Source: Candidatus Methanomethylicia archaeon | Lineage (GTDB): Archaea; Thermoproteota; Methanomethylicia; Culexarchaeales; Culexarchaeaceae | Length of the DNA stretch: 64,000 nucleotides | Reading direction: 5' to 3' | Assembly: GCA_038727515.1 (NCBI GenBank) | Contig: JAVYVS010000005.1 | Coordinates: forward strand, 48,609-112,608 | Shown here: positions 31,650 through 56,318 of the stretch, one piece after another | Layout of the letters: each line of letters starts with the position of its first letter | Position numbering within the stretch: position 1 is the first letter of the stretch | Program-made: the position numbers and the translations under genes | The notes under the pieces: generated by a model | What the model was told of the DNA's origin: nothing | Databases searched by the model: none | The model's input: the letters and a program-made list of their open reading frames with translations, nothing else

Positions 31650-31743
31650 TTAGCTATTGTAATTTAAAGTTTTACATATATAGTCTATGGAGGAGAATTA
31701 TGAAACTTAAATATCATATTAATCATTATTATGTTGGGTTGAT

Positions 31744-31974
31744 ATGGGTGGTAAAGAATTGTCCATAAAATTATCTAATATCGAAAGATCTGTTGAAGAA
31801 ATGAAAATTGATATATCGTACTTAAAGAATCATGTAGATGGCATAATAGATTTCATGAATTCTAACCAATTAAGAAATGAATTATTACAGAGGGATATGG
31901 TAATATATGAGTTACTCAACGAAATTAAAATATTATTAAATGAAATCTTAAACATTCTACTCAATAAAAAATAA
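31744..31974 (+). CDS. Small hypothetical coiled-coil protein
   Basis: ATG ORF with heptad pattern, followed by A/T runs. Confidence 0.55.
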   Translation: MGGKELSIKLSNIERSVEEMKIDISYLKNHVDGIIDFMNSNQLRNELLQRDMVIYELLNEIKILLNEILNILLNKK

Positions 31975-32004
31975 AAAAGAATTTTATTGCATTAACTTGG
32001 TTTA

Positions 32005-32523
32005 CTAGTAAACTACAATTATTTTGAAATCTATGATTCCACCATCGTAAAATATCACTGCCCTATATATATTTCCAATCTTCCAATCTCCTTGAGAATT
32101 TATTTCAAAGTATATTGTTGCTACACAGCCCTGAGGTATTAGTAATTTATTGTCAGCATCCACTACTACATCTTTTGATGATCCATATATTTGTCCAAAT
32201 TGTAATGAGTTTGTTAAATTTATTGTTGCCCCATTATTTGGTGAAAAAGTTATATTCGCTTTTTCATTGCTTTTTTCTGTGTCTATCTCTATTTTACTTA
32301 TCTTTATTGTTGTTGTCCCTGTATTCCTTAGTACTATTTGTATCCTGGCTTTATTATTTGATGGACTCAGAATTATTTTTGACTCGGATGCATCTATTTT
32401 CACAATGTTTATTGCACCACTGAACCATCCCATCATTGTTGATGCGTACGCTATGGCCATTCCAAGTGAAACTGCTAAGAGTATTAATGAAACCATTATG
32501 GCACTTATCCCTTTCCTATTCAT
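32005..32523 (-). CDS. Archaeal type IV pilin (class III signal peptide)
   Basis: MNRKG|ISAIMVSLILLAVSLGMA hydrophobic N-terminus; LRNTGT beta-sandwich motif. Confidence 0.85.
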   Translation of the reverse strand: MNRKGISAIMVSLILLAVSLGMAIAYASTMMGWFSGAINIVKIDASESKIILSPSNNKARIQIVLRNTGTTTIKISKIEIDTEKSNEKANITFSPNNGATINLTNSLQFGQIYGSSKDVVVDADNKLLIPQGCVATIYFEINSQGDWKIGNIYRAVIFYDGGIIDFKIIVVY

Positions 32524-32587
32524 TTAACCCTTTATCTAATGAAATCTTAGAGTATAAAATTGCATACTGAATTTGTGCAGTTAATTT

Positions 32588-33313
32588 TTATATTATAACG
32601 TCTAATTGTTTTATTGCGTATAATGCTATTGAGAGAGGTATACTTATCTTTTTTAAGGGTTCTTTACATGTAAATGTCGCTTTTTCAATACCTAAACCTT
32701 TCATGCATCCAATTTTCTCTTTCCTAGAGTTTAATATTGCAATTTCTCTTCCCCAAATTCTTTTTATAATCATATTCTCTCCTTTATAAAATGATTCTAT
32801 AGGTTTCATAAAACCAATTCTATAGGCTTCAAAAATAATTTCATCCATCTTCTTTATGGTGAATCCTGCAAATTTGTACGTTTTAAATATTATTTCATAA
32901 TTTTCTTCTCCATTTACATGGTATATTGATTTTAATATACCTTCTCTTTTTGCTTGAGCCACTAATTTTCCTACTCCATTCACTATCTTGTATACGTTTA
33001 TGGGAGGTTCTATTTTATTTAGTGGTTTATCATATGATAGTATTAATGTATCGCTTAATTCCTTCATGTACATATCCAGTTTATCTTTGTCTTCAACATC
33101 CAAATAGTAATATTTCATTTTCTTATTGTATTTTATTATCCCTTCTTTACTTATTTTCTTAATTATCGCATTAATCTTCCTTATATCTCCACTTTCCTTA
33201 ATCTTTCTCGCTAAACTTCTAGATGTAAATTTATACTGTTCTCTCGCTAAATATTCTACTTCTTCTCTCAAACATTTTATTACTTTATATGTTAGTTCTA
33301 TGTTTTGGCTCAA
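32588..33313 (-). CDS. wHTH + putative Tubby/LURP-like beta-barrel protein
   Basis: N-terminal FTSRSLARKI...KISKEGII wHTH; C-terminal beta-hairpin series ending in a hydrophobic helix. Confidence 0.5.
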   Translation of the reverse strand: MSQNIELTYKVIKCLREEVEYLAREQYKFTSRSLARKIKESGDIRKINAIIKKISKEGIIKYNKKMKYYYLDVEDKDKLDMYMKELSDTLILSYDKPLNKIEPPINVYKIVNGVGKLVAQAKREGILKSIYHVNGEENYEIIFKTYKFAGFTIKKMDEIIFEAYRIGFMKPIESFYKGENMIIKRIWGREIAILNSRKEKIGCMKGLGIEKATFTCKEPLKKISIPLSIALYAIKQLDVII

Positions 33314-34280
33314 TTTTCATTTTCACCATTAAGTTTTCTTCTATACTCCTTTTTTCTTCATTTAATTTACATACTTCTTCCTCTAGGTAGCTTCTCTTCC
33401 TAATTAAGGTGTTTACATCTTTTTCCAACTTTTCTTTTTCCTCTTTTAATTCCTTAATCCTTTTTTCAATTTCTTTTTCTTTTTCCTCTAAAATTTTTAA
33501 GTATGTAATCCTCGAATTTGTTAATTTCATTATTTCTTCATATTCCTTTATTTTTTCCATTAATGTATTTGCTAATTTTGTTAATTCTCTTTCTTTTTCA
33601 TTTAATTCTTCTTCTTTTCTGTGTAATTTTTCTTCATACATCGATAATTCTTCAATTTTACCTTTAATTTCTTTATTTCTCATTTCTGCTTTCTCCATTA
33701 ATATGCCTAATTCTACTTTTGTAGATGCTACTTGATCTATTGCTGCTTTATAATTTTCTAATAGTCTTTTTATGTTTACTTCCATTTCACTGATTTCCTT
33801 TTGTATTATTGTTGCTGTTGATATGTTTTTTAGTGCGTTTATTTCTAGGTCTTTTATGTTAATTATATTTTTCATAGCTTCTTGATTTATTTCTTCAATA
33901 TTACTCATCTTTCCAATTATTGTATTTAGATTTGTTTTCATTTCATTTTTCATATGTGCAATTTCATCCATAATTTTCATCGTATTTTCTTGTAAAATAT
34001 TAGATTTATTAATGATCTCCGTAAGTATGTCTGAATTTGTTATTTTATTTAATGTTTCTTTAAATTTCTCAGCTTCATCTATTACTTCTTTCACTTTTCC
34101 AATACTTTCAATAACCTTTATTAATTGTTCTTCTATTTCATTTACTTTGCTTCTCTTTAATTCTGCTTCAAGCTTCATAACTCTAGATATATTTTCATTT
34201 ATTTTTGTGTTCATTTCATTTAGTATTTGCATTATCCATTCAAGTTTCTCTATGATTCCCTTCGCATTAGATTTAAACAT
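33285..34280 (-). CDS. Long coiled-coil protein
   Basis: 331 aa, E/K/I/N-rich heptads, no Pro until the extreme C-terminus. Confidence 0.75.
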   Translation of the reverse strand: MFKSNAKGIIEKLEWIMQILNEMNTKINENISRVMKLEAELKRSKVNEIEEQLIKVIESIGKVKEVIDEAEKFKETLNKITNSDILTEIINKSNILQENTMKIMDEIAHMKNEMKTNLNTIIGKMSNIEEINQEAMKNIINIKDLEINALKNISTATIIQKEISEMEVNIKRLLENYKAAIDQVASTKVELGILMEKAEMRNKEIKGKIEELSMYEEKLHRKEEELNEKERELTKLANTLMEKIKEYEEIMKLTNSRITYLKILEEKEKEIEKRIKELKEEKEKLEKDVNTLIRKRSYLEEEVCKLNEEKRSIEENLMVKMKIEPKHRTNI

Positions 34281-34383
34281 TACCTCTACTTTTTTGCTAC
34301 ATATTACAGTATTAAAATGTATATGTTTCTTTTCTCTCGGTTTTAAATATCCAAATATTTTCTTTAAATGTGGAGTTTGAGAT

Positions 34384-35943
34384 ATGTTTTTAAAGAAGAT
34401 TTTTAAGCATGAAAAGAATCCTTCGCATCAAAATTTCGATTTTAAGATTTTTAGATCTAAACTTCCTGTGGATTCATCTATTCTTTCATCTTATAAAATT
34501 TGTAATAATCAAGTTCATGTAATTATTGCAGAAAATAATGGTGAAGGATTATATATAGTTTCTGAACCTGAATTAATGGATATAGAGTTAAAAGTCTATA
34601 GGGAATTATCTAAAATATTAAAATTTGAGATCAATATTCCACATGATCTTTCCGATATTGATTTACACAAGTATATTCACGATTGTATACTTAGGATTGC
34701 TAAAGATTATGGATTTAAAAATTTGTACGAATTAAGTATAGATAGAATCGCCTATTATATTTCTAGGGATTTAGGTTATGGTTATATAGAACCCCTTCTT
34801 AGGGATCCAGATATTGAAGATGTTAAATGTGTTGGCCCCAATATGCCTTTCTTTGTTTGGCATAGAAAGTTTGGGTATTTTGATTGGCTTACTACTAACA
34901 TTGTTTTAAATGAGTATGAATTGAATTCTTTAGCTTCAAAACTTGCACATATGTGTGGTAAACATGTTTCTATAGCTTTTCCAATAGTTGATGCCATTTT
35001 ACCAGATAAAAATAGGCTTTCTATATGTTATGGTAGAGAAGTTAGTGCTAGATCTACTAATATCTGTATTAGGAAGTTTAGGGAGAAGCCATATACCATT
35101 ATGCATTTAGTTTATGATTATTCAACTTTAAGCCCTCTTATGGCTTGTTATTTATGGGTTTTAATTGAAAATAAAAGAAACATATTTATATTGGGTGGTA
35201 CTGCTACTGGTAAAACTACTCTTTTATGTGCTTTAAGCGCATTATTCAAGCCGAATTGGTCTGTAGATTCTATTGAGGACGTTCCTGAACTCAAAATTCC
35301 AGTTAAAGGTTGGGAACCTCTTATAGCTAGACATGCATATTCAATGGACAGTAAACAATTTGAAATTTCACTTTTTGATTTAGTTAAAGTGGCTGTTAGG
35401 AAGCGTCCTGATTATATTGTTGTAGGTGAAATTCGTGGTGAAGAAGCTTATGTACTTTTCCAAGCAGCAGCTACTGGACATGGATGTATGTGTACTATGC
35501 ATGCTGATTCAATAGAATCAGCCATTAAACGTCTTTCTTCCCCACCAATGAACGTTTCCCCAACATATATTCCACTTATGAACTGTGTTATTGTTTTAAG
35601 GAAAATTGAAAATGGTAGGGATGTAAGGAGGAAGGTTGTAAGTATATATGAGCTAAAGTCTTTAGATAATTATATTGAGGTCTTTAAGTGGATTCCATTG
35701 TATAATACTTTTTCACCATCAAGTGTTGATTCTCTCATCTCTTCAAGTATTCTATTGAAAGAAATAGCTGAAGAAAATGGTTGGTCCACTAAAGATGTAG
35801 CTCATGAAATAAGTTCTAGATTATCCTTCTTAGAAGGTTTACGTAAACAGGGTGTTAGGGAGTATGATGATTTTGTTACAAACCTTAGATTATTTAATTA
35901 TTCTAGAAGTTCAAAGGTGGTTAAAGTTGTTTATGGAAAGTAA
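34384..35943 (+). CDS. Type IV pilus/secretion assembly ATPase (ArlI/TadA/VirB11 family)
   Basis: PLLRDPDIED, Walker A GGTATGKTT, SIEDVPEL, RPDYIVVGEIRGEE, His box GHGCMCTMHA. Confidence 0.93.
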   Translation: MFLKKIFKHEKNPSHQNFDFKIFRSKLPVDSSILSSYKICNNQVHVIIAENNGEGLYIVSEPELMDIELKVYRELSKILKFEINIPHDLSDIDLHKYIHDCILRIAKDYGFKNLYELSIDRIAYYISRDLGYGYIEPLLRDPDIEDVKCVGPNMPFFVWHRKFGYFDWLTTNIVLNEYELNSLASKLAHMCGKHVSIAFPIVDAILPDKNRLSICYGREVSARSTNICIRKFREKPYTIMHLVYDYSTLSPLMACYLWVLIENKRNIFILGGTATGKTTLLCALSALFKPNWSVDSIEDVPELKIPVKGWEPLIARHAYSMDSKQFEISLFDLVKVAVRKRPDYIVVGEIRGEEAYVLFQAAATGHGCMCTMHADSIESAIKRLSSPPMNVSPTYIPLMNCVIVLRKIENGRDVRRKVVSIYELKSLDNYIEVFKWIPLYNTFSPSSVDSLISSSILLKEIAEENGWSTKDVAHEISSRLSFLEGLRKQGVREYDDFVTNLRLFNYSRSSKVVKVVYGK

Positions 35944-37624
35944 AAAGTTTTTCTTTATACCCGTAAATTTGGCATTTAAAATTTTTGGAGGGATTGCATA
36001 TTCATTTTCGAAGAAGTTTGATTTAGATAATTTAATTTATCGTTCTGGTTTAAAGATTAGCCCTCAAGGGTATTGTTCAATTTTTCTTTTTCAATTCTTC
36101 TTTATCGTACTACCAGTTTCTCTTATAACGTTTATCATATTTCAATTTTTAAATCATTTTACACTCTCATGCATAGTTCCATTATGTCTTATGTCTTTTT
36201 CAGTAGTATTCTTCTATGCATATCCATTCATTAGAATTTCTCTTCGTAGAAATGGTGTCTTATCTGAACTTCCATTTATATCTACTTATTTTAGTATATT
36301 GGGTTTATCGCATGTTCCAATATATAGAGGTTTCGAGAAATTATCTTCTCAAAATATTTTCCCATGGTTTAAATTTGAGAGTGAACTCTTTTTAATTGAT
36401 TATATATTTTTCAGTAAGGATCCACTGATATCCATGAAAAATTTATCTAATAATCATCCATGTAAAGAGTTTAAAGATTACTTAGAATCTTATATTAGAT
36501 CTATTGAAAGTGGTGGATATCCTCTTTCTTTCCTATTAGATTATAGTTCAAATTTAAGTGAACGTTTATCAAATAGGCTTAAACGTTTTTCAGAAGATGT
36601 CAATATCTTTGGTGATTTAATAATCACTTTATTTGTTTTTTTACCTCTTGGCTTAATTGGAATTTTCATAGTTGTAAATTCATTTAATACACTTTTTTGG
36701 TTGAAGCTTTATGGATTTGTTTTTTCACCATTAATTGCACTTTCACTATTATTAATTGTAGATTCTAGTCAATTAAAACTTCCATTTAAACTTAATGATT
36801 ATAAACGTATATTATTGTTTTCTATTCCACCATCATTAGTAATACTTCTAGTTATTCTAACAAAATTTAATTTTGATTTTCCAATTACTTTTACGGTTTT
36901 TTCATCATTTCTATTGGCTCCAACAAGCGTTATGTATGAACTCAATGTTATAAGGAATAGGTCTTTAGAATTTAATCTTCCAAAATTTGTTAGAGATGTT
37001 TCGGAGTATATTAAAATTGGATTAAGTATTGAAGGTGCTATTTCATTGGTTTCAAAAAATTCTTATGGGGCTTCTTTAAATAAAGTTATTAACGATATAA
37101 ATAGGTCTCTATCTTTCTCCACAAAATCTATAAGTGATATTTTTAATGATTTGATTTCTAAGATTAATTCTTGGTTTGCAAAAACTGTATTTTGGCTTTT
37201 TGGGGAAGCTATTTCTACTGGTGGAGGTACCGCTGAAGTTTTTTCTCATATTTCAAAGTTTTGTTGGGATTATTATGAATTTAAACGTAAAATTGAAAAT
37301 GAGCTGAAAGTATATATCTTTATAGGATACTTTGCTTCACTAATATTGATTTTTGTTTCTTCCCAACTTATAACTTTTTTAAACTTCTTTAGAAGTGGGT
37401 ATAGAACCTTTGATTTTAATATTAGCTTTATGATTGTAGATGAAGTTTTAATTTCAGATCTAATAACTACAATATATTCAACTATAACAATATTATCATT
37501 TCTAACCGGTATTTTAATGGGTAAAATATCTGGTGGGACTATTTTTAGTGGATTTAAACATGCTTTGGTATCATGTTACATTTGTTTATTCGGAATATAT
37601 TGTGGTGGTGTAAAATTATGGTGA
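35933..37624 (+). CDS. Type IV pilus membrane platform protein (ArlJ/TadC, two T2SSF domains)
   Basis: Multi-TM protein; ELPF, IESGG, LPKFVRDV, SYGASL, ILMGKISGG..GFKH; start moved to ATG 35933. Confidence 0.87.
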   Translation: MESKKFFFIPVNLAFKIFGGIAYSFSKKFDLDNLIYRSGLKISPQGYCSIFLFQFFFIVLPVSLITFIIFQFLNHFTLSCIVPLCLMSFSVVFFYAYPFIRISLRRNGVLSELPFISTYFSILGLSHVPIYRGFEKLSSQNIFPWFKFESELFLIDYIFFSKDPLISMKNLSNNHPCKEFKDYLESYIRSIESGGYPLSFLLDYSSNLSERLSNRLKRFSEDVNIFGDLIITLFVFLPLGLIGIFIVVNSFNTLFWLKLYGFVFSPLIALSLLLIVDSSQLKLPFKLNDYKRILLFSIPPSLVILLVILTKFNFDFPITFTVFSSFLLAPTSVMYELNVIRNRSLEFNLPKFVRDVSEYIKIGLSIEGAISLVSKNSYGASLNKVINDINRSLSFSTKSISDIFNDLISKINSWFAKTVFWLFGEAISTGGGTAEVFSHISKFCWDYYEFKRKIENELKVYIFIGYFASLILIFVSSQLITFLNFFRSGYRTFDFNISFMIVDEVLISDLITTIYSTITILSFLTGILMGKISGGTIFSGFKHALVSCYICLFGIYCGGVKLW

Positions 37625-40600
37625 AACGCCTTCTATTTTCCTTAATCTTAATATTTTCTATTTTAATGATCTCAATCCCATTTTCAAATGAATCTCTGTA
37701 CTATCCTTTAGCTCCTCCATTCAATGAAGTCCAAGTATTCTATCATAGTCGTGGCAGTGGAACTTTTTCGTATATGTATGATAAGAATCGAGGTGTTATG
37801 AAGGGTATTTGTACTGCAGTTAAAAACATTGGCTCTATATTAGATGAAGCGGATTTAACTCTAATTTTTAAGGGTTATTTAACCACGTCTTTTAGTGGTG
37901 TAATAGAAAGATTATTTGTTAAATATACTTTGAAGGGTAGGTTATATGTTAAATCTGTGTGTTTACCTAATACGTTTTCTGCTTCAGCTGAAGTTGGTGT
38001 TTACGTTGATTTAATGGGATCAAGAATGGTTTTAGCTTCTAAAACTATAGAGCTATATTATTCTGGTGAAGATCAGTATGTCTTTAACGATATTTCTCAA
38101 ACCGTTTCTAAGGAATTAAATTTAAGAGTTTTTAAAGGTGAAGTTATTGAGTTTACAGTTACAATGCATATTAGTAGTGTAGCTCTAGGTGCTCTTGAAG
38201 ATTATTCATATTCACTTGCAGATTTTAGTAGTGGAGATTATGGTTTACGCATAATACTGTATATCGGATATTTAGAGGATTCATATATTTCCGCTTCAAT
38301 AAATCCTTCTAAAGCTTATATTGGTGATTCTATTGAGATAAGTGGTTATTTGGTGGATAGTAATGGGCGTGGTATTCAAAATTCCATTTTGCTTTTATAT
38401 CTAGATTCAAATTACATATCCTCTACGCGTACTGAGAGTAATGGTTACTTCTACTTTCAATATATTGTTCCAATGGATATAGTCCCTGGTGAGAAGATTT
38501 TCAAAGTTGTTTTTGAAGGTGATAGTGGCCATTTACCTTCTTCTCAGGAATTTAAATTGATAGTTCCATCATTCTCTTTACATGCTTCACATTACAGTAT
38601 TAAGATACCCTTTGGCTCCGTTAGGGGTGTTGATATATACGTTAATGATATTTATAACTACAACCTACCTGTTGAAGTTAAAATTGGTGATTTACCGAAT
38701 TGGATTAGTTATGGAATAGTAGGTGATACTCTATCTATTCCACCATTTCAATTCCATATCTACTTTACCACTTATGATGTTGGTGAATTTAATCTTGAAA
38801 TTTTGGCTGTAGGTTCTGATGGTCAAATTAAGAAAATACTATTAAATATTGAAAGTTATCTCCAACCTACATACTCAATATCTGTTATTCCATATGTAAA
38901 TGAAGTTTTCCAAGGTTCTTCAACCACATATACAGTTATCTTAACCCCATTAAATGGCTATAATGGTCTAATTAACCTATTTCTTGAAGTTAATGGACTT
39001 AATTTCTCATCACATTTCTCTTTGAATCCAGTTCCTCTATATTCTTATGAGAAACAAATTACACTTACTATTCAAGTACCACCCTTTGTTAATGTGGGAT
39101 CTTATGATCTGATAGTTAAGGGTGTTGATAGTAATGGATTAATTGTATATAGCAATCCATTTAAATTGAATGTGAAGGAAGGTCCATATTTTAAAATTTC
39201 TGTTCATCCAACTTTTTCATCAATTTTTAGTGGTGAAACAGCAATATTTTATGTTAACTTAACGTCATTTAATGGATTTAATGATTACATTTCACTTGAA
39301 GTTTTATGTGATGTAAATGTTTCAAAATCCTTTAGATTCATTTTCTCAGAGAATCACATCAATCTTTCACCATCAAATTTAACTAAGATTGTTAAATTAT
39401 ATGTATCTCCTTCATCAGATGTTTACGGCATATTCAATTTTACTATTTATGCATATTCATCTTTTCATCAAGATTCATGTAGTTTTTCCCTTGAAGTTAA
39501 AAAGTCTGCATCTATTGAACTTTATTATGTTAATTGGCTTAGAAATACTTGGCACCATGAGTATGTTTTTATGCCTTATGAAGCTATTGGCATTATTATT
39601 AGTTATGAACCCCTCAAAAATCTTACAATGATATTACCTAAACATATCTTTGGTGAATTCAATTCTTCGGTTATAAAATTGTTTACTGACGAGAATGGTA
39701 CATGTAGATTTATAGTATTTTTAAATGGTTTACAGTGTCCTACTGGTTTCTATGAAATTTACCTACTGGATGATTCTGGAGAAATTGTCTGTACAAGCCA
39801 TATATGTATTGATAGTTTAAACGCTTTTTATCAAGTTTACAATGATTATAATTATAGTAGAATACTTTTTTATTTGAAATGGTCTCATAACAATGAAAGT
39901 ATTAGATTTAGAGGGGGAAACATAGAATTTATTTTGAAATCCAATATTCCAACTTTAAATCGTTGTTTAATTAATGATAGTGGTGTTGCTATATTTAATG
40001 TACCACCGATCATCCTTGATTCTCATTTAATTTTCCATGTTCATTATGCTTTTTCCCCTATTAGAGTTAAAAGCGCTAATTCAAGCTTACTTTCAATAAT
40101 TGTTCCATATAGACGTATATCGTATGATATTCTTAGAATTTCATTTAATGATTTCAATTTCAATTTAAATCTTAGATTCTACTATGAAGATAATACTCCT
40201 GCAAAACTAATGTTATTACTAGTGGCTTATTACGATGATTCTATAGTTGAATTTAATTATGTAACTGATGTTAATGGGTTTGCCTCAATTAATTTCAGTT
40301 TGCCCCCTTCCAAATATATAGTGTTCAAACTTCTTTGTAGAGATATTAATGATAGATGGGTTTCAAGAGTTAAGGATCCTTCAGATCTTTATTGGGATGA
40401 AAATATCGGTGTATTATCTTATGTTAATGTTCAAAATGGATTTGTTAATTTTACCTTTATCCCAACGTCGAGATTCATGAATTTTAAATGTACTTTTTAT
40501 GCTATGTTTTATGATGAATTTGATACATTATTTTATTCTTTCTCTACACTTATTCCTTTAAATCATGGTTCAATCAATTACTACACTTTTTCACTTCATA

Positions 40601-40698
40601 AGAAGGTTCATAGAATACTTTTCTATATCTCTGTGCATGGTTATGAAGTTTTTGAAGGAATATGGATTGATGGTGATTTTTCATGGAAAACGTTGTAG
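37618..40698 (+). CDS. Large secreted surface protein with tandem Ig-like repeats
   Basis: Signal peptide MVKRLLFSLILIFSILM; repeated F.IS..P......G....Y.V.LT..NG(F/Y)N units; T..NG motifs. Confidence 0.75.
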   Translation: MVKRLLFSLILIFSILMISIPFSNESLYYPLAPPFNEVQVFYHSRGSGTFSYMYDKNRGVMKGICTAVKNIGSILDEADLTLIFKGYLTTSFSGVIERLFVKYTLKGRLYVKSVCLPNTFSASAEVGVYVDLMGSRMVLASKTIELYYSGEDQYVFNDISQTVSKELNLRVFKGEVIEFTVTMHISSVALGALEDYSYSLADFSSGDYGLRIILYIGYLEDSYISASINPSKAYIGDSIEISGYLVDSNGRGIQNSILLLYLDSNYISSTRTESNGYFYFQYIVPMDIVPGEKIFKVVFEGDSGHLPSSQEFKLIVPSFSLHASHYSIKIPFGSVRGVDIYVNDIYNYNLPVEVKIGDLPNWISYGIVGDTLSIPPFQFHIYFTTYDVGEFNLEILAVGSDGQIKKILLNIESYLQPTYSISVIPYVNEVFQGSSTTYTVILTPLNGYNGLINLFLEVNGLNFSSHFSLNPVPLYSYEKQITLTIQVPPFVNVGSYDLIVKGVDSNGLIVYSNPFKLNVKEGPYFKISVHPTFSSIFSGETAIFYVNLTSFNGFNDYISLEVLCDVNVSKSFRFIFSENHINLSPSNLTKIVKLYVSPSSDVYGIFNFTIYAYSSFHQDSCSFSLEVKKSASIELYYVNWLRNTWHHEYVFMPYEAIGIIISYEPLKNLTMILPKHIFGEFNSSVIKLFTDENGTCRFIVFLNGLQCPTGFYEIYLLDDSGEIVCTSHICIDSLNAFYQVYNDYNYSRILFYLKWSHNNESIRFRGGNIEFILKSNIPTLNRCLINDSGVAIFNVPPIILDSHLIFHVHYAFSPIRVKSANSSLLSIIVPYRRISYDILRISFNDFNFNLNLRFYYEDNTPAKLMLLLVAYYDDSIVEFNYVTDVNGFASINFSLPPSKYIVFKLLCRDINDRWVSRVKDPSDLYWDENIGVLSYVNVQNGFVNFTFIPTSRFMNFKCTFYAMFYDEFDTLFYSFSTLIPLNHGSINYYTFSLHKKVHRILFYISVHGYEVFEGIWIDGDFSWKTL

Positions 40699-41993
40699 AA
40701 TATATCTTCGTAGGATTTATGTTTTCACTTCTTTTATATTCAAGTTTAATGTTTATGGGAGAATTGGCTGATCGTTATTATTTTGCATATAATTTTAAAC
40801 CTAACTTTATCTATGATTATATACTCTCTTCTTTAGCTCCTGAGGGTCGTTTAGATGCCTTCTTCATGCAATCTTTATCATATAATTATTCATCATTTTT
40901 CGGATACTATTGGAGTTATGAGAATATTAAGGAAATTTTAAAAATTGATGATTATCCTATTTCCATTCAAATTTCTCCATCTTTAAAGGTATTTGTAGAC
41001 TTTATTGATGGTTTTCTAGTCATAAATTCATTTCATGCTCAATTTTTAAAACCATGTGGTCAAGAGGCATTTATCTATGTATTTAGTAATGGAAGTTTAA
41101 ACCATTTTGTACATTTATATTTAATTGATGGATTTGGGAAATCTAAATTAAGTTTCAAACCTGAATTAGTTGTAGCATTTGTTAAGTATGGTTCTCTTTT
41201 TGGATATGGATTTTATGGGGAATTTGAAATCTTTCATATGTTTATTCCTCCTGGAGTTCTATATCTATCAAGTTTTGAATGTGAACAAGGGTTTTACGCT
41301 ATTGATGGTATAGCTGGAAGCTCCTCATCTAGATTAGTTGATAGCTCTGGAGTATCATTTTACACTAGAGATTTTAGAAACTTTACGATTTTTAGTGGGT
41401 ATTTGAATATTTCTATTTTTATTAGAGGTTTTGGAAGTTTATGTGTGTCTTTCGGCGTATGTTCATACAATTTTAGTAATATGATTATTTTAGGGAATGC
41501 TTCGTTTCCAATTAACTCTAGTGAGATTAATGAGTATTTTTTAACGATTCCAATAACAAAAAGTTTTCATGGTGAAAATATGAGGTTATTCATAAGATTT
41601 TATTCAATTAGTGATGATACTATATACATTTATTTCGGTGGTTGGAGTTATTCGTCAAAATTCACTTTAAATTGTAGTATACCTATTTTTTCTCAAAGTC
41701 CTTTATCTAATTGCCTCCATACTAAATTTATTTGGCGTCTTTGGTTTGAAGAAGCTGCTAACATCAGTAGTCTCCATCAATTTAAACCTCTATGTATAGT
41801 GGTTTCCAATTTTAATGGAATGTTTTATGTAGCCCTTATACCGGAATTAGAAATTTCTATTGGTTGTATAATTAATGGTGATGCCACCTATAGACTTCTT
41901 AACATTAATGGATATCATTTATTGTGTAAATTGTCCTTACCATTAGCGTCTGATAGCATCCACCAAAAAATTACAGTAATACATGAGGTGTGA
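40683..41993 (+). CDS. Pilin-like/adhesin protein with N-terminal hydrophobic helix
   Basis: MENVVEYIFVGFMFSLLLY N-terminus, beta-rich body, operon context. Confidence 0.55.
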   Translation: MENVVEYIFVGFMFSLLLYSSLMFMGELADRYYFAYNFKPNFIYDYILSSLAPEGRLDAFFMQSLSYNYSSFFGYYWSYENIKEILKIDDYPISIQISPSLKVFVDFIDGFLVINSFHAQFLKPCGQEAFIYVFSNGSLNHFVHLYLIDGFGKSKLSFKPELVVAFVKYGSLFGYGFYGEFEIFHMFIPPGVLYLSSFECEQGFYAIDGIAGSSSSRLVDSSGVSFYTRDFRNFTIFSGYLNISIFIRGFGSLCVSFGVCSYNFSNMIILGNASFPINSSEINEYFLTIPITKSFHGENMRLFIRFYSISDDTIYIYFGGWSYSSKFTLNCSIPIFSQSPLSNCLHTKFIWRLWFEEAANISSLHQFKPLCIVVSNFNGMFYVALIPELEISIGCIINGDATYRLLNINGYHLLCKLSLPLASDSIHQKITVIHEV

Positions 41994-41999
41994 TGGTGG

Positions 42000-42392
42000 A
42001 TGTCCAATAAGGGTTTTTCAAGGATTATTGAATTACTTTTTGCACTCATTATAATATCTTCTGCTTCTGTTATTTTCCCACTTATTAGCTATAGAGTTTA
42101 CATTGATGTAGAATTCATGTATAGTATTGCCTTTAATGCTCTTTCTACAGTTGAAGAGAATGGGTACTTAAGTTTTATGGTTTATAATGGAAATTGGGGT
42201 GAATTAACAAATTATATTAAAAACTTCATACCTGCGAATTTTAAATTTCGCTTAATTGTTTATGATGAATCTCTTAATGTACTTTATTCCAATGGAGTTA
42301 ATCCTAGCGATTTTGTTCATCTAATCTCTATTCCATATATATTGAAATTCAAGGGGGTGACTAGAATAATTGTATTGGAGATTTGGAGATAA
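42000..42392 (+). CDS. Minor pilin (class III signal peptide)
   Basis: MSNKG|FSRIIELLFALIII. Confidence 0.72.
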   Translation: MSNKGFSRIIELLFALIIISSASVIFPLISYRVYIDVEFMYSIAFNALSTVEENGYLSFMVYNGNWGELTNYIKNFIPANFKFRLIVYDESLNVLYSNGVNPSDFVHLISIPYILKFKGVTRIIVLEIWR

Positions 42393-43035
42393 AGGACAGA
42401 TTATAATTATTTTTGCAGTATTATGTGTTGCATTAATTTATCAATTAGCTTACTTTATACCATACTATAGTGTTAGTGTAAGTTCACCCAAACCATATAT
42501 TCAACTTTTAAACCTTATGATTAAGAGATTCGTATGGGATTCACTTATTTACAATATTAGTGGATATTCATTCATAGATAAATTTAATTCAAATTTAAAT
42601 ATTCTTTATAAATTTTATCCATTATCTATAAACCTATCATCTCATAGGCTAGTTTCTCACAATGGATATGTTGAAGCTTTTGTTTCTCTAGACATATATG
42701 ATTTTAGATATGGTTGTAAGTATAATTTTATCTATAGATGTTTCCTTGGTTTAAATCTCGTTAACTTTACAATTTTACGTTCTTATCTGCCTAGTTTTAA
42801 AGGTATTAAAGTTATAGTTAAAGTTTTTGGGGATGAAGATTTCCTAATTAATTCTCCAATCTTTGAAGTGTCTTATTCATATAATGAAACTATTCTCACC
42901 TGTATCCCTGAAGTAGAGTATCTTCAAGATCAATACTATTGCATCTACTTCATTGCTCCCCTCAACACTCGTCATTTTACTCTATGTATAACTGATTGGA
43001 GAGGGGTGAAATGTATTGTGTTTTTTGAATGTTAA
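42370..43035 (+). CDS. Minor pilin (class III signal peptide)
   Basis: DKG|QIIIIFAVLCVALI; C-terminal DWRGV. Confidence 0.68.
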   Translation: MYWRFGDKGQIIIIFAVLCVALIYQLAYFIPYYSVSVSSPKPYIQLLNLMIKRFVWDSLIYNISGYSFIDKFNSNLNILYKFYPLSINLSSHRLVSHNGYVEAFVSLDIYDFRYGCKYNFIYRCFLGLNLVNFTILRSYLPSFKGIKVIVKVFGDEDFLINSPIFEVSYSYNETILTCIPEVEYLQDQYYCIYFIAPLNTRHFTLCITDWRGVKCIVFFEC

Positions 43036-43690
43036 GGGGATTTCGACTATTATTTCAAATGTTATTATATTTTCAGTATTTATGGTGTTATTAGTTGCTT
43101 CATTCCATTCTGGATTTCAATACTTAAGCGTTTTAGAACTTTATTTAAAATCTAATGATGCTATTGATTTTTTGAGATATCTAAGATTAGAGATTAATAG
43201 GCTTTCATTTGTCAATGATTCTGTGAAGATATTTAATACTCATTATGAAATTAAATTGGAAAATGCTGATAGAATAGCTATTTTCATTGATGATTTATTT
43301 TTGGGAAGCTTTCCCCTCAACATTTTTTCAATACCACTCTATTATTATTCTCCTCCAATAATTCATGAAAGTTTTATACATTTTAATGGGACTTTAGGTT
43401 CTATACATTTACGTGGTTATAATGCCCATCTCATTCCATCAATTTCAGTATCAAACTTAGATTCTGTCTTATATGTTAAGTTTTTTGTTGTAAATGGTAC
43501 TGGTAGTATCCATGGGAATTTTATTTTGAAGGTTAAAGGTTTAATGAAGGCCCATTACTCTATAGCATCTAATGGTGAAGTTTCAATTAAAGTTTATACC
43601 AATCTATATAATGGTTCAGAGGTTTTGCACTTACGTGGTATTATAAAATTGTTATTTGAAGTTGTTTTCTTAGAGGTGGTTCCATTATGA
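43016..43690 (+). CDS. Minor pilin (class III signal peptide)
   Basis: VKG|ISTIISNVIIFSVFMVLL. Confidence 0.7.
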   Translation: MCFLNVKGISTIISNVIIFSVFMVLLVASFHSGFQYLSVLELYLKSNDAIDFLRYLRLEINRLSFVNDSVKIFNTHYEIKLENADRIAIFIDDLFLGSFPLNIFSIPLYYYSPPIIHESFIHFNGTLGSIHLRGYNAHLIPSISVSNLDSVLYVKFFVVNGTGSIHGNFILKVKGLMKAHYSIASNGEVSIKVYTNLYNGSEVLHLRGIIKLLFEVVFLEVVPL

Positions 43691-44355
43691 TCTCTTCAGA
43701 AATTTTTTCGTCTATAATTCTTATTGGATTGATTTTGACAATAGGATCTATTGGTTTGCAATTGTATGTATCCCATTATGTTTTTACATTGGTATCTTTG
43801 GAAATTGAGAGTGTGAAGTCTTTCTTTAGAGATTTAGTAAATGGTTTAAATATGTTAAATCCAGTTACATATACGTTTTCTCTTAGATATGGTATTTTGA
43901 TAATTTCAGTGGATGGATTTCAATTTCTAAATTTTGCTAATGAAACTATATTTTCCTCTTATTTTATGATTTTGAAATATGTTTCTCAATATAAAATTTA
44001 TCCATCAAGAAATGTGATAATTGAAAGTGGCAACTCTACATATTTTTCATTCTATATTGTTGGGTGTGAAAATCAGCTTATACTCTACCTATATCCTCTC
44101 CTCTCCATAGATATGGATAAGGTTGTTGTTGGAGCAGTTGTTTTTAACATTAATAATTCTCTCAAAATCGTTAGTGGAAAATATATTTTCAATCCATCTA
44201 TAATTTTCATTAATCGTTTTTATAGAATTACTATGCCTATAAATATGTATCTTCACTATCATTTTCATTCATATAACTTTGTTTTTAATGCGGAGAAATT
44301 TTCACATATAAATTTAGATTTTAGGTTAATCTCAATAGGTATTTCTGGTGGTTGA
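43687..44355 (+). CDS. Pilin-like protein without a basic leader
   Basis: MISSEIFSSIILIGLILTIG; ATGA overlap with the previous gene. Confidence 0.6.
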   Translation: MISSEIFSSIILIGLILTIGSIGLQLYVSHYVFTLVSLEIESVKSFFRDLVNGLNMLNPVTYTFSLRYGILIISVDGFQFLNFANETIFSSYFMILKYVSQYKIYPSRNVIIESGNSTYFSFYIVGCENQLILYLYPLLSIDMDKVVVGAVVFNINNSLKIVSGKYIFNPSIIFINRFYRITMPINMYLHYHFHSYNFVFNAEKFSHINLDFRLISIGISGG

Positions 44356-44773
44356 TTTGAGGAATGTATTATCTAATTGTATTTTGACTTTCGGTCTTAT
44401 GCTTTCATGTATATTGTCTTTCTCCTCTCTGAGTATCTTCTGTTATAATGTTATGGATAATGAACGCATTTATTCAACTTTAGCATGTGTTTTTAAAGAT
44501 TCTATAATTTATGGTGCTCAAATATGTAAAGATCTTGGTCCAAATTCTAGTATACGTTTGAAATTAGAGGTACCAACTAAATTAATTGGGTTTACGATCT
44601 TTATACTTAATTGTGAATGTGTATTATTCGATATTAATGGAAGAATAGTCTTTAGGTTTAAGCTACCTTCTTCACCCTCTATTTCTTATGTTAATTCATC
44701 AGCCTCTATTTCTTATGAATATATTTTCATTTATTTCTACAGTCTTGATGGTAAAATATTTGTTAAATTGTAA
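44348..44773 (+). CDS. Pilin-like protein
   Basis: N-terminal hydrophobic helix, helix, then beta strands (LEVPTKL); last gene of the operon. Confidence 0.55.
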   Translation: MVDLRNVLSNCILTFGLMLSCILSFSSLSIFCYNVMDNERIYSTLACVFKDSIIYGAQICKDLGPNSSIRLKLEVPTKLIGFTIFILNCECVLFDINGRIVFRFKLPSSPSISYVNSSASISYEYIFIYFYSLDGKIFVKL

Positions 44774-46913
44774 ATTTTGCCCCCTCTAATTGTTCTTTTA
44801 TCTTCTTTATAGTTTCTTCTCCCATCAACGGTATCTTCCTTAAGTCTTCAATTTTCGCCTTTTTCAAATCTTCAATAGATTTATAACCAGCTCTATATAG
44901 TAGTCTTGCCCTTACTCTCCCTATACCTCTTAACTGTACTAATTCAAGTAATTCTGGTTTGCATCCATATTCTAGTCTAGATGTTAATTCTTCAAGTTTT
45001 TGTATATGATTTGTTAATCCTAGAACTTTACATATTTCTGCAGCTGAATATGTTAACCATTGTGTTGTTAAGGCTATAGTGTATATATCTCCAGGTCCAA
45101 CATCATATTTATCTATTATATCATCTTCCTTTTCTTCATTTATCCAATCATTTAACATCATAGCAGTTTTTAATGCTTGTAGCATTATTGTTTGGTCAAT
45201 TTCATCTTCACATTCTTCCATGTTAATGAGTAGTTCTCCCCCCATTTCCATAATTTTTGAAATTAGTAATGATCTTTCTCTCCTCGTTATATGTAATTTT
45301 GGCATATCTGGTGTTGTAGATACTAGGTGTAGATATGCGATTTCACTAGCCTTTCTCTTTTTCTGTAATCCTCTTATAATGTATACTGCTGATAATGGGT
45401 CTATGTATAATTGTGATACTCTAAATCCCAGTTTTGTTGCATTCATGTATTCTCCCAAGATCTTTACCATTTCATTTTCTATTAAGAACCCTAATACTCT
45501 TCTCAGAACTTTCATTAACTGTCTTTCTTCACCATATTGTTTATAATAAAATGTTTTTCTCATGAATTCCATGATCTCTTCCTCCGTTTTGACAAAATCT
45601 GTGGATATTATTGCAAGTATATGTGATCTTAATGCTGATTCTGAAGCTAATTTAGACCATATTCTCTCCGGTGGTGCTTTAACATAATTTTCCATTAAAA
45701 ATTCTTGTTCTTGTATTGTTCTTGCTATTAATATTGCATCCCCATTTTCATCATATTTTGGTCTTCCAGCTCTCCCAGCCATTTGATGATATTCAAGTAT
45801 TGGTATTGTTTGGTATCCTGTTATACTATCATATCTATAGTAATTCTTTATTATCACTCTTCTTGCTGGTAAGTTTACTCCTGCAGCTAGTGTTGGTGTG
45901 GCACATATAACCTTTATTTTGAATTCTCTAAAACCCTTTTCAATGGTGCTTCTTTGATTCGCAGATAATCCTGCATGATGAAAAGCTACTCCATTTCTAA
46001 TACATGTAGCTAATTCTTCACTTACTCTTGTAGTTTCTTCTGATGATAGTATTTCATTCGCGATACTCATCAACTCCCTTTTTTCATTAGCCTTTATATA
46101 TTTTGATATTAATGGTATCAGTTTGAATGCTGTTTCCCTAGAATTGTTTCTAGTATTTGTAAATATTAGAACTTGCCCTCCCTCTTCTAATATTTGCTTT
46201 GTTAATGCTTCGCATGGATCCATCTTTTCCCTTGTAACTTCAATTACACTCTTATCTTCATATACTATCTTTCCATCTATGTACACACCTTTCCTTAATG
46301 GTACTGGTCTCCACTCACTCTTAATTAATTTTGCATTTAACCATTCTGATATTTCATCTGAGTTCATTATTGTAGCGCTTAAACCTATTATTTGCGTGTT
46401 TGGATTTATCAATTGTAATTTTGATAATACCACTTCGAGTGTGGGACCTCTTTCTTGATCATTTATTAAATGTATTTCATCTGCTACAACAATGTTTATA
46501 TCATTTATCCATGAAGGTTTATTTCTTAAGATGCTATCAGCTTTTTCATTGGTCATAACAATTATATCGTATTGTTTTAACCATGGTTCTGGATTATCAT
46601 AATCTCCCGTGCTTATTGCAACTTTCAACCCCGCTTCTTCATATTTCTTAAATTCTTCATATTTTTCCGATGCCAATGCTTTTAATGGTGTAAGATAAAG
46701 TGCTTTTCCTCCATTTTCAATTAATCTTTTAGTTATTGCAAGTTCTGCAATTAATGTTTTTCCAGCGGCAGTAGGTATTGCTAATACTATGCTTTTACCA
46801 TTTAAAACTCCACTTTTTATTGCTTGTATTTGTGGTGGGTATAGTTCGATGATTCCATGTTTTTCTAATATATTTTTTATGGTGTTTGGTATTGGTAATT
46901 CTCTTATCTTAAT
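44763..46913 (-). CDS. hel308: Hel308/Hjm SF2 DNA helicase
   Basis: Frame stays open 79 codons upstream of the track start and contains LYPPQ and Walker A PTAAGKT; DEIH, HHAGL, QMAGRAGRP, C-terminal HhH; probable ATT start at 46913. Confidence 0.95.
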   Translation of the reverse strand: MKIRELPIPNTIKNILEKHGIIELYPPQIQAIKSGVLNGKSIVLAIPTAAGKTLIAELAITKRLIENGGKALYLTPLKALASEKYEEFKKYEEAGLKVAISTGDYDNPEPWLKQYDIIVMTNEKADSILRNKPSWINDINIVVADEIHLINDQERGPTLEVVLSKLQLINPNTQIIGLSATIMNSDEISEWLNAKLIKSEWRPVPLRKGVYIDGKIVYEDKSVIEVTREKMDPCEALTKQILEEGGQVLIFTNTRNNSRETAFKLIPLISKYIKANEKRELMSIANEILSSEETTRVSEELATCIRNGVAFHHAGLSANQRSTIEKGFREFKIKVICATPTLAAGVNLPARRVIIKNYYRYDSITGYQTIPILEYHQMAGRAGRPKYDENGDAILIARTIQEQEFLMENYVKAPPERIWSKLASESALRSHILAIISTDFVKTEEEIMEFMRKTFYYKQYGEERQLMKVLRRVLGFLIENEMVKILGEYMNATKLGFRVSQLYIDPLSAVYIIRGLQKKRKASEIAYLHLVSTTPDMPKLHITRRERSLLISKIMEMGGELLINMEECEDEIDQTIMLQALKTAMMLNDWINEEKEDDIIDKYDVGPGDIYTIALTTQWLTYSAAEICKVLGLTNHIQKLEELTSRLEYGCKPELLELVQLRGIGRVRARLLYRAGYKSIEDLKKAKIEDLRKIPLMGEETIKKIKEQLEGAKFTI

Positions 46914-48978: not shown

Positions 48979-49532
48979 AAGTTTTCACCTATACTTATCA
49001 ATTTGTTTTTCCAAGTAGATAATACATATCTTATCTCTCTCAAAAGCATTTTCTCTTCCATCGTCATGTTTTCCATTATTGTTTGTGGTATTGCTTCTGT
49101 TATTGCTAATTGCAATATCTTCTGTATCCTACAATTTACTATATCTATAAATGTATTTTCATAATTTCTTTGTTCTTGTATTTTTTCTGGTGTAGGTTCC
49201 TTCTTTAATTCTTCCCTCATCTTTTGTATTTTCTGTCTCACCTTCGCATAAAATTGTGGGTCTATTTTTGCTAAACTTGTTTCCCTAGATTCTTTCCAGA
49301 GGATTTTTCTAATATCCTTTATCCCTAGTTCTTCAGTCGTTTTTAATTCTATTAATCCCATCTTTAACATTTTTTCTGAAGCCCATTTTGGTATTTGAAT
49401 TTCAGCACCTTCTGGTTCCAAAATTATTTTATTTCCCCCTACTTCTATTGGTTGCCTAACATTTTTCACTATGGCCTTTATTGATTCTACTTCAGATATT
49501 AAGTTTGATATTTTATCAACAATTTCAAGCAT
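48975..49532 (-). CDS. gins23: GINS subunit (Gins23)
   Basis: IPKWA B-domain then helical A-domain (FY, RIQKI, MTMEE); overlaps the mcm start. Confidence 0.85.
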   Translation of the reverse strand: MLEIVDKISNLISEVESIKAIVKNVRQPIEVGGNKIILEPEGAEIQIPKWASEKMLKMGLIELKTTEELGIKDIRKILWKESRETSLAKIDPQFYAKVRQKIQKMREELKKEPTPEKIQEQRNYENTFIDIVNCRIQKILQLAITEAIPQTIMENMTMEEKMLLREIRYVLSTWKNKLISIGENL

Positions 49533-49630
49533 TATATTTCACACTCAACATTTTTCTTTTTAAACTTTCTAAGTATTATTTCTTCCTATTTTACGTGTTA
49601 ATTTAATATTTACCCTTACTTATATTATGT

Positions 49631-53618: not shown

Positions 53619-53657
53619 ATAACTCTTCTCTATATCTATTTAGCTTTCTATTTATCT

Positions 53658-54110: not shown

Positions 54111-54113
54111 AAA

Positions 54114-55570: not shown

Positions 55571-55661
55571 AATTCATCAAAAGCATTTACTTTTTCAATG
55601 AATTTATATGTTTCGTTCATTTAAACTAACTTATAGTAGAGAGTTAACTGAAAGTAATCTT

Positions 55662-56174: not shown

Positions 56175-56223
56175 ATCTATATACCTACCATTAAATTAAA
56201 ATATGATTTCATTAAAATGTTTA

Positions 56224-56282: not shown

Positions 56283-56318
56283 CTTTAAATTATTTTAGTT
56301 TTTAGTTAATGTTTATTT

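Follow-up and report, generated by a model that had tools for sequence, protein, structure and literature searches.

We found that a 64,000-nt window of a Candidatus Methanomethylicia archaeon (contig C5, JAVYVS010000005.1, positions 48609-112608, of a 12-contig, 1.59-Mb assembly that is 93.6% complete, G+C ~30%) carries a 12-gene type IV pilus (T4P)-like cluster. This Culexarchaeia cluster is real and conserved, and it is an uncharacterised variant rather than a new kind of machine. We lean modestly towards reading it as an adhesive pilus, in which a minor-pilin tip or priming complex displays an adhesin made of an array of immunoglobulin (Ig)-like domains.

The cluster consists of two divergent transcription units spanning window positions 32005-44773 (Table 1). 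Nine genes form the plus-strand unit (34384-44773), in which neighbours overlap by 4-23 nt or lie 6 nt apart; they encode a secretion ATPase, a platform protein, a giant protein of 1026 aa and six proteins with an N-terminal helix, named here p436, p130, p221, p224, p222 and p141. The minus-strand unit has three genes, running from 34280 down to 32005, for a coiled-coil protein, a 241-aa protein and a pilin (pilinA). The initial annotation of this DNA had proposed an overlapping plus-strand operon of this content and, about 100 bp away, a divergent operon with a coiled coil and a pilin; the open reading frames (ORFs) of the former were confirmed, as were the three genes of the latter beyond a 103-bp gap.

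The core of a T4P machine was recognised by family searches. The ATPase matched PF00437 (E 1.3e-26, 93.6 bits against a cut-off of 24.9), and its best PDB matches were archaeal GspE2 (2OAP, E 2e-77, full length) and FlaI (4II7, E 3.8e-63). The platform contains PF00482 in two stretches of one ORF (E 6e-15, 55.8 bits, cut-off 25.2). PilinA begins MNRKG↓ISA (the arrow marks the class III cleavage site), with [KR/AS]G↓[IV]SA kept in all six sequences, and it matched the NCBIfam UpsA model at E 1.9e-9. It is the best-conserved secreted protein of the locus (49-71% identity, 59 invariant columns); its best match in the PDB profile search, 8q30, was not significant (E 0.088). The only A24 prepilin peptidase of the genome is encoded outside the locus, on contig C2 (100617-100952; PF01478, 40.3 bits, cut-off 26.5). 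Class III sites were also present in p130 (KG↓FSRIIE; orthologues [KRYFLS]G↓[FI]S and G↓[FI]S[RK]Ix(E)), p221 ([KR]G↓Q, G9 and Q10 invariant in 6/6 sequences, 8 Cys in the protein) and p224 (KG↓IS; orthologues [KRN]G↓[IL]S; N5, G8 and S10 invariant in 5/5). The KG↓F, KG↓Q and KG↓I sites noted at first are therefore kept in orthologues, and the ATPase, platform, class III pilins and A24 peptidase uphold the proposal of a T4P-like system. Apart from the ATPase, platform and pilin, Pfam and NCBIfam returned only coiled-coil noise in the 331-aa protein, and no family for the remaining eight locus proteins. A hydropathy scan gave exactly one hydrophobic segment, at the N-terminus, for the pilin, the giant protein and all six helix-anchored proteins. 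The platform showed six segments, the 241-aa protein and the coiled-coil protein none.

Six related loci carry the ATPase, five of them long (L008-L012), and the nearest relatives are in metagenome-assembled genomes (MAGs) named Candidatus Methanomethylicia archaeon, Ca. Culexarchaeum nevadense and Ca. Culexmicrobium cathedralense. BLASTP recovered all 12 genes, with order and orientation kept, in L008, L009, L010 and L012, and 10 of the 12 in L011, in which p224 and p141 escaped detection at E<=1e-3; L011 may stop short of p141. These results indicate that the ORFs are real genes and not chance. Identity to the related loci is 62-76% in the ATPase but drops to 24-55% in the small proteins, as is typical of fast-evolving surface proteins, and the genes flanking the locus are syntenic too. 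Searching with p436 relatives found the Culexarchaeia protein in 4/4 genomes of the same family, in 3/4 (f2) and 0/1 (f3) of the same order, and in 0/50 other genomes of the class (f4-f9). Near-identical DNA, covering at least half of the sampled words, was present in 16 hot-spring metagenome runs.

The conserved p436-p130-p221 trio

A p436 profile searched against 1.84 billion representative proteins gave seven strong matches, from Culexarchaeia, and five weak ones of ~290 aa with the same leaderless acidic N-terminus (MHExxEH...). With these relatives as queries, a search of 401 Thermoproteota genomes led to four loci in other families (L037-L040), all with the order [~279 aa, class III][~152 aa, leaderless], ATPase, platform, [~356 aa, leaderless][~140 aa, G↓QxRxxE][~277 aa, SG↓Q]. 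The same five accessory families were found at a second pilus locus of this genome, on contig C6 (L022). We then compared family alignments profile to profile with hhalign (35 pairs). The highest probability was that of p130 with the ~140-aa family (wD; 99.0%, E 9.4e-18, full length), followed by p436 with the ~356-aa family (wC; 95.2%, E 2.9e-8, residues 4-170) and p221 with the ~277-aa family (wE; 94.3%, E 1e-7, residues 5-220). The match of p224 to the ~279-aa family (wA) reached 57.5% (E 1e-4) over 70 N-terminal columns and that of p222 to the ~152-aa family (wB) 20.1% (E 1.1e-3, residues 17-60); the other 30 pairs stayed at or below 3.3%, and p141 matched none of the five widespread families (<=1%). 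Single-sequence comparison with the C6 paralogues gave 89% for p130 and 60% for p224, while p436 and p221 were significant with family alignments only. Judged from these profiles, p436-p130-p221, three of the six pilin-like genes, is a conserved module in conserved order. That the order is kept downstream of ATPase and platform, both in other Thermoproteota and at C6, argues that the trio is a structural module.

The p130 family had 108 members in a search of 5.8 billion proteins, all called hypothetical and without a Pfam domain; those with a source organism came from Bathyarchaeia or Bathyarchaeota MAGs, and the label Bathyarchaeia-like that we use for L037-L040 rests solely on these source organisms. 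Among the 401 Thermoproteota genomes the family was present in 127 (E<=1e-5), for example in 23/32 genomes of family f4, 13/17 of f15 and 17/25 of f20, with 0/56 in f10 and 0/15 in f27, the family with true UpsF. Across 63 sequences just one column is invariant, the Glu that lies six residues past the cleavage-site Gly. The trio was not found in the T4P loci opened for nearer relatives of the ATPase (L064, L065, L066, L079 and L080). Since the ATPase forms a clade apart (see below) and the trio is missing from those loci, the cluster combines a motor of one lineage with a minor-pilin module that otherwise accompanies another. Makarova et al. (PMC4858521) describe modular evolution of just this kind. 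The initial annotation had called the locus the best candidate for an undescribed system. That claim is weakened by the sharing of the p436, p130 and p221 families, in the same order, with C6 and other Thermoproteota, by the presence of the p130 family in nearly a third of the sampled genomes, and by the catalogues of complex crenarchaeal T4P loci already given in PMC4858521 and PMC13705601.

The leaderless start of p436 was examined in the related sequences. Its ORF opens straight on a hydrophobic helix (MENVVEYIFVGF...), with the consensus ME-x-V-[VI]-E-[YH] and M1, E2 and E6 invariant. In four Culexarchaeum-type sequences (the window and L008-L010) a stop codon sits two codons 5' of the Met, so p436 cannot have a leader peptide. 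In Culexmicrobium-type genomes the orthologue is longer, ~740-765 aa (L011 16330-18624; L012 16314-18539; P0133, P0135, P0136), and its C-terminal Ig-like domains resemble the central part of the giant protein at 25-35% identity (E 1e-5 to 4e-6). This fusion of giant-like domains to p436 suggests that p436 and the giant protein are functionally linked; it looks, from the sequences, like domain shuffling between two proteins of one operon. Pfam gave nothing useful on the long p436 forms or on the C6 accessory proteins. Numbers of N-X-S/T sequons exceeded expectation in p436 (9 vs 3.3), p221 (4 vs 1.3) and p224 (4 vs 1.9).

An AlphaFold2 (AF2) model of p130, from a 63-sequence alignment, had a predicted local distance difference test score (pLDDT) of 84 and contained a helix (residues 4-53), two short helices and a four-stranded antiparallel sheet; as modelled, p130 is a pilin-like lollipop of a 50-residue helix and a sheet. 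The PDB profile search gave nothing significant for p436 or the p130 family, and all ESM Atlas scores for p436 were below 0.8. Complex prediction for the trio with helices removed (p436 28-436, p221 30-221, p130 28-130) gave a median score of 0.61. The two partner-replaced controls each gave 0.00 but the control with p436 replaced gave 0.55, and the result was used neither for nor against binding.

Motor, Ig-array protein and divergent unit

The ATPase was placed in a tree of 47 sequences (IQ-TREE, LG+C20+F+G4; support as ultrafast bootstrap/SH-aLRT). The sampling comprised the locus ATPase, five orthologues, three paralogues from the same genome, four sequences from L037-L040, 17 ATPases from five genomes, labelled by NCBIfam scores and UpsF adjacency, and 17 of 120 listed matches picked for spread. 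The C5-type ATPases of Culexarchaeia formed their own clade (100/100), which the metagenomic protein P0025 joined at 100/98. With weak support (83/77) their sister was a clade of Methanomethylicia- and Nezhaarchaeales-named sequences, and the next join, also weak (71/95), was to a clade containing UpsE. The C5-type clade fell outside FlaI (100/100), the C6 and C2 paralogues, the L037-L040 clade (100/98) and a third Sulfolobaceae ATPase (100/100) that is labelled AapE-like by elimination alone. The placement that the initial annotation had advised thus gave a separate clade outside FlaI, UpsE and the AapE-like and C6/Bathyarchaeia-like groups. For the platform, similarity to the UpsF model was tried as a marker and dropped: 125 of the 401 genomes have a platform at E<=1e-30, so that 135 bits is ordinary, and true UpsF, above cut-off, occurred only in 11 genomes of one family (f27).

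The giant protein was modelled by AF2 from a 10-sequence alignment (mean pLDDT 75, predicted template-modelling score 0.38). The model contains one N-terminal helix followed by nearly all beta strands, with two short helices (675-678 and 921-927). Foldseek against the PDB returned arrays of Ig, FN3 and macroglobulin domains (E ~1e-14 to 1e-19, TM-score ~0.1), including complement C5, alpha-2-macroglobulin, titin and the Aureispira grappling-hook neck (9flp); with a TM-score of only ~0.1 these matches denote likeness of domain type, not homology. The model and the Ig- and macroglobulin-type matches agree with the Ig-repeat protein first described. Sequence homologues are confined to Culexarchaeia (eight of nine matches, the ninth spurious), and nothing was significant in the PDB profile search. 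The sole hydrophobic segment covers residues 1-24, there is no C-terminal transmembrane (TM) segment, and the protein ends ...GDFSWKTL. It has 16 sequons against 10.3 expected.

The two cytoplasmic proteins of the divergent unit are kept in all five long loci. The 241-aa protein (36-55% identity by BLASTP, 36-56% in the alignment), initially described as wHTH/beta-barrel, has no TM segment and a winged-helix-like N-terminus, judged by eye only; it gave no significant Pfam, NCBIfam or PDB match and no usable ESM Atlas match. The 331-aa protein, also without a TM segment, gave only weak matches of coiled-coil type (SMC, E 3e-5; Rad50). From its sequence, the 103-bp region between the units probably has promoter function.

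Separately, small cytoplasmic coiled-coil proteins of 140-190 aa were seen beside T4P loci of differing ATPase clades, namely L024 8280-8705 (c2_141), L040 1441-2007, L079 12276-12857 and L080 14374-14904. c2_141 and the L040 protein match at E 6e-13, and these proteins may be an unrecognised accessory family.

Table 1 Features of the pilus-like locus in the window
Feature	Position	Strand	Remarks
orf76, 76-aa coiled-coil ORF	31744..31974	+	convergent with pilin gene; 43-57% identity in L008, L009, L010
pilinA, candidate major pilin	32005..32523	-	class III site and UpsA-model match
241-aa protein, basic (pI 9.5), cytoplasmic, family unassigned	32588..33313	-	syntenic in 5/5 loci
331-aa coiled-coil protein, cytoplasmic	33285..34280	-	syntenic in 5/5 loci, 25-56% identity
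Divergent intergenic region, 103 bp	34281..34383	.	AT-rich TATA-like stretches on both strands, read from sequence
Secretion ATPase, 519 aa, GspE/FlaI/PilB superfamily	34384..35943	+	PF00437
TadC/ArlJ-type platform, 563 aa, single gene	35933..37624	+	PF00482; 11-nt overlap with ATPase gene
Giant protein, 1026 aa, all-beta multidomain (model)	37618..40698	+	7-nt overlap with platform gene
p436, 436 aa	40683..41993	+	16-nt overlap with giant-protein gene
p130, 130 aa, pilin-like	42000..42392	+	6-nt gap after p436
p221, 221 aa, pilin-like	42370..43035	+	23-nt overlap with p130
p224, 224 aa, pilin-like	43016..43690	+	20-nt overlap with p221
p222, 222 aa, N-terminal helix	43687..44355	+	4-nt overlap with p224
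p141, 141 aa, N-terminal helix	44348..44773	+	8-nt overlap with p222

Two starts in Table 1 were picked from orthologue alignments: the longest platform ORF is 35852-37624, and the longest giant-protein ORF begins at 37573, with the conserved start (MVKR) at 37618. orf76 gave no family above threshold in Pfam or NCBIfam and was absent from L011 and L012 by BLASTP; its membership in the pilus system is uncertain. The locus lies among housekeeping genes, with a CCA-adding enzyme, a tRNA, a phosphoribosyltransferase and a histone-deacetylase-family gene on one side and hel308 and mcm on the other. The convergent hel308 gene shares 11 nt (44763-44773) with the operon end. The longest hel308 ORF (44763-46676, minus strand; mcm 46927-48978, minus strand) matches its family profile from position 79 on and is thus without its N-terminus.

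Proposed adhesive pilus and alternative readings

On the adhesive-pilus reading, the A24 prepilin peptidase encoded on C2 would first cleave the class III leaders of the pilins. The hexameric-type ATPase and the single TadC-type platform would then extract the pilins from the membrane, and the PilA-type pilin would form the filament shaft. The six downstream proteins with N-terminal helices would be minor pilins of low abundance, priming assembly and finally sitting at the tip, with the p436-p130-p221 trio as their core. The 1026-aa Ig-array protein would be displayed by or near this tip complex as an adhesin, with which the cell, in hot-spring sediment, would attach to surfaces or other cells. 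The coiled-coil and 241-aa cytoplasmic proteins might serve as locus-specific accessory or regulatory factors. A multi-subunit tip complex, suggested at the outset, is with the adhesin added the most economical reading. Its place at the tip is a prediction, and so are the choice of major pilin, the part of the giant protein in adhesion and what the cytoplasmic pair does.

Several observations weigh against the adhesive pilus. The presumed major pilin lies in a transcription unit separate from that of the motor. Half of the six helix-anchored proteins (p436, p222 and p141) have no canonical class III site: p222, found in 5/5 loci, begins M-x-S-S-E (MISSE... in the window), and p141, in 4/5 loci, reads [RKS]N↓[VI], with no Gly, Ala or Ser at the would-be cleavage site. 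These three may be membrane-anchored base parts and not pilins. The N-terminus of the giant protein is of Sec or anchor type, not class III, and is followed by an invariant LAPP motif. Fold prediction among the six covered p130 alone; for the p130 model, Foldseek found no PDB match at E<=0.001 and the top 50 VIA-align rows contained no pilin, the best (Z 8.1) being ribosomal uS3 and PDC/PAS-like sensor domains, in a range that the tool calls common. Expression is hinted at by one metatranscriptome library (X18), in which DNA may be present: its contigs, from a near relative and not this strain, are 95-99% identical to the orf76 and pilin region (31585-32473; one spans 31744-32473), the ATPase (34468-35922), the giant protein (37839-38193 and 39488-39781) and p224 (43111-43288), and locus parts without a contig are no sign of silence. 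The adhesive-pilus reading is built on genes, family relations and two fold models, from which a filament and contact of the giant protein with it are predicted.

The same gene content could instead serve a short pseudopilus embedded in the envelope, in the manner of a type II secretion system (T2SS) or a bindosome, where the ATPase, the platform and seven helix-anchored proteins would make a stub and not a long fibre, and the stub would export, anchor or position the giant protein or other surface proteins. We consider this unlikely. Many pilin-like proteins per one shaft pilin would suit it, as would the lack of class III sites in the giant protein, p436, p222 and p141, and the giant-protein gene directly 3' of the platform gene, within the operon. 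The ATPase scores almost alike with the NCBIfam FlaI and BasE models (322 and 310 bits, both under cut-off), whereas two paralogues of the same genome score 341-353 and 237-241, and PMC13705601 argues that type IV filament machines are often adapted for non-fibre purposes. However, BasE (310.4 bits, cut-off 1000) and BasF (72 bits, cut-off 1300) lie far under their cut-offs, and a dedicated PilA-type pilin is kept beside the machine. A crude genome scan for class III N-termini (64 candidates, mostly ordinary membrane proteins, no family check) gave no evident substrate-binding protein.

Rather improbable, in our estimate, is a Ups-like recognition pilus for DNA exchange or repair, which with its Ig-array adhesin would gather cells of the same species while a separate Ced-like system moved the DNA. 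The ATPase groups with the Methanomethylicia/Nezhaarchaeales-type and UpsE-containing clades and not with FlaI, AapE-like or C6/Bathyarchaeia-like sequences, but the nodes concerned are the weak ones given above (83/77 and 71/95). Two related families, of Nezhaarchaeales type, encode an ATP-dependent DNA ligase downstream of the sister-clade T4P operon (pilins, ATPase, platform) and in its orientation. The ligase gene starts 23 bp past the platform in L079 (G193:C1:712000-731999) and comes after one 233-aa ORF in L080 (G248:C4:24000-43999); a further 3 kb on, L079 encodes a CedD-like membrane ATPase (84.7 bits, cut-off 600) together with an XPD/Rad3 helicase. This pattern of DNA genes nearby was, however, spotted post hoc. 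A helicase and an endonuclease are reported for the Sulfolobales Ups neighbourhood (PMC13705601), and the operon adjoins hel308-mcm in Culexarchaeum- and two Culexmicrobium-type genomes. Yet hel308 and mcm are convergent with the operon and housekeeping in nature, and the opposite flank, with the histone-deacetylase-family gene and the phosphoribosyltransferase, is equally conserved, so plain synteny explains the adjacency. Of the link to DNA uptake first drawn from the hel308 overlap, the 11-nt overlap itself stood, with the adjacency kept across the order; the functional link stays speculative. The UpsF (135.3 bits, cut-off 400) and UpsA (37.8 bits, cut-off 130) scores also speak against a Ups-like pilus, and no UpsX-like gene was recognised. 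A bolder form, to which we give slightly less credence again, would make the locus the Culexarchaeia counterpart of Sulfolobales Ups, a DNA-exchange recognition pilus with partner specificity residing in a fast-evolving Ig-array adhesin at the tip and not in the shaft pilin. The wider ATPase lineage (Culexarchaeia, Methanomethylicia/Nezhaarchaeales-type and Ups) would then be ancestrally tied to DNA repair and import genes (DNA ligase, CedD-like ATPase and XPD, hel308).

It is very improbable that the giant protein, instead of being an adhesin, is an S-layer or S-layer-modifying protein riding in the operon, one that would breach or repair the envelope at the point where the pilus crosses it. 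A role of this kind is put forward in PMC13705601 for the Ig-fold S-layer-like proteins of archaellum loci, and Ig-rich S-layer proteins are reported for Culexarchaeales (bioRxiv 10.64898/2026.08.21.746120). However, members of the PySLP-like family described in the bioRxiv paper are marked by a C-terminal TM helix and a basic cytoplasmic tail with Lys as its last residue. Both features are absent from the giant protein, and better candidates lie elsewhere, such as a 1518-aa ORF with both features on C7 (29124-33680).

Other pilus loci and described systems

The genome has four ATPase/platform pairs (C1, C2, C5 and C6). C1 holds the archaellum, with ArlB-like, ArlG/F, ArlH (204.7 bits, over cut-off), ArlI (538.7 bits) and ArlJ proteins, so the C5 locus in the window is one of three non-archaellar T4P systems. 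Within it no Arl family matched except for sub-threshold FlaI and ArlJ scores, and no Che family matched; with the ATPase outside the FlaI clade, the early statement that it is not an archaellum proved right. C2 is a simple locus with a pilin. At the C6 locus (47200-56800; L022 7214-16821), genes for five helix-anchored proteins (259, 181, 388, 156 and 275 aa) follow those for a pilin, an ATPase and a platform. The locus continues with a DUF438/hemerythrin/PAS protein (430 aa) and a small helix-turn-helix protein, gene content that hints at redox- or O2-responsive control of the C6 pilus.

A crude motif scan turned up possible orphan pilins: two small ORFs (133 and 221 aa; C2 102098-103152) whose N-termini are class III-like and which adjoin the A24 peptidase gene, and a further pair at C1 149083-150496. 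Large ORFs on C7 (the 1518-aa ORF named above), C9 (255-3473, 1072 aa) and C4 (25367-29398, 1343 aa) begin with a signal-like segment and end with a TM helix and basic tail, and are by these features candidates for PySLP-like S-layer proteins.

At catalogue level the type of locus is already known from the published descriptions. Makarova, Koonin & Albers (2016, PMC4858521) present crenarchaeal loci with several untraceable minor-pilin components and large adhesin or S-layer-like proteins, and Sivabalasarma & Albers (2026, PMC13705601) sort such loci into subsystems 4A-4I; their supplementary table 1 lists Methanomethylicia among the 4A, 4B and 4I hits, with loci unspecified. Compared by descriptions, not arCOG models, the nearest within system 4 are 4A (accessory genes 3' of the platform and an adhesin) and 4G (many minor pilins and a large Ig-fold adhesin). 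Shared with system 4 are an ATPase, TadC platform and PilA-family pilin, fast-evolving predicted minor pilins 3' of the platform, a large signal-peptide protein of Ig folds, and accessory proteins without experimental data. In contrast to 4A and 4B, which have two platform genes, one ORF here contains both T2SSF stretches. 4G has a dedicated FleN/MinD ATPase and a diverged ATPase and platform (arCOG05609/05611), whereas no MinD/FleN match occurred among 14 locus proteins. The giant protein differs from system 4 by having no detectable homologue beyond Culexarchaeia, and the ATPase by its separate clade.

The locus type of L037-L040 and C6 is related through its last three genes, which the trio matches, and possibly through its first, which p224 may match (57.5%). 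It differs by an ATPase in another clade (100/98) and by the absence of a giant Ig-array protein between platform and trio, of significant p222 and p141 counterparts and of a divergent coiled-coil/241-aa unit. Likeness to Ups and the bindosome (4I) lies in the weakly UpsA-like pilin, a platform nearest UpsF among NCBIfam models and the similar BasE and FlaI scores, and to Ups also in the weak tree affinity to the UpsE-containing clade and the DNA-metabolism genes nearby. Unlike this locus, Ups is made of five genes (upsX, E, F, A, B) and lacks both a minor-pilin set and a giant protein. A Ups pilus was rejected because UpsF and UpsA scores are far under cut-off, the ATPase falls outside the UpsE clade and there is only one PilA-type pilin; a bindosome (Bas) was rejected on the BasE and BasF scores and the lack of an evident class III binding protein in the rough scan. 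As for the Aap pilus, which is characterised by an Fe-S protein (AapX), two arCOG03871 pilins and an AapE-clade ATPase, no Fe-S family in Pfam or NCBIfam matched in the locus, and the ATPase is outside the clade called AapE-like by elimination.

The arrangement also resembles bacterial type IVa pilus minor pilins with PilY1 and the T2SS GspH-I-J-K tip: several pilin-like proteins of low abundance are encoded with a ~1000-aa non-pilin adhesin, there is a small, a medium and a large member, and one member has an invariant N-terminal Glu. Here, in contrast, the Glu occupies position +6 instead of +5, a leader is absent from the largest member, and the adhesin candidate is an Ig array, not a beta-propeller. 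For p130, PDB profile, Foldseek and VIA-align searches gave no sequence or fold match to bacterial minor pilins or pseudopilins.

Culexarchaeia are unnamed in the text of PMC4858521 and PMC13705601, the description of the group in PMC9723716 makes, by term search, no mention of pili or archaella, and the papers retrieved on Methanomethylicia pili contained nothing on this system by title or abstract. In the text consulted, the gene set, the trio conservation with its Glu, the leaderless member, the Ig-array protein and the cytoplasmic pair go undescribed, though a per-genome assignment might exist. The accessory proteins are without experimental characterisation, in line with the initial description of the system as uncharacterised.

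Beyond a few model organisms, archaeal T4P are known as gene lists only. The trio is a three-gene minor-pilin module, made of a leaderless large protein, the small pilin in which one Glu never varies and a third, KG↓Q-type pilin, that occurs in many Thermoproteota and whose proteins are unstudied; its structure would explain the priming or capping of a large class of archaeal pili. The occurrence of one module with two unrelated ATPase lineages within a single 1.6-Mb genome illustrates modular evolution. The lineage-restricted Ig-array protein is a good candidate for an adhesin of these uncultured hot-spring generalists, and the DNA-exchange reading, if true, would extend Ups-type behaviour past Sulfolobales.

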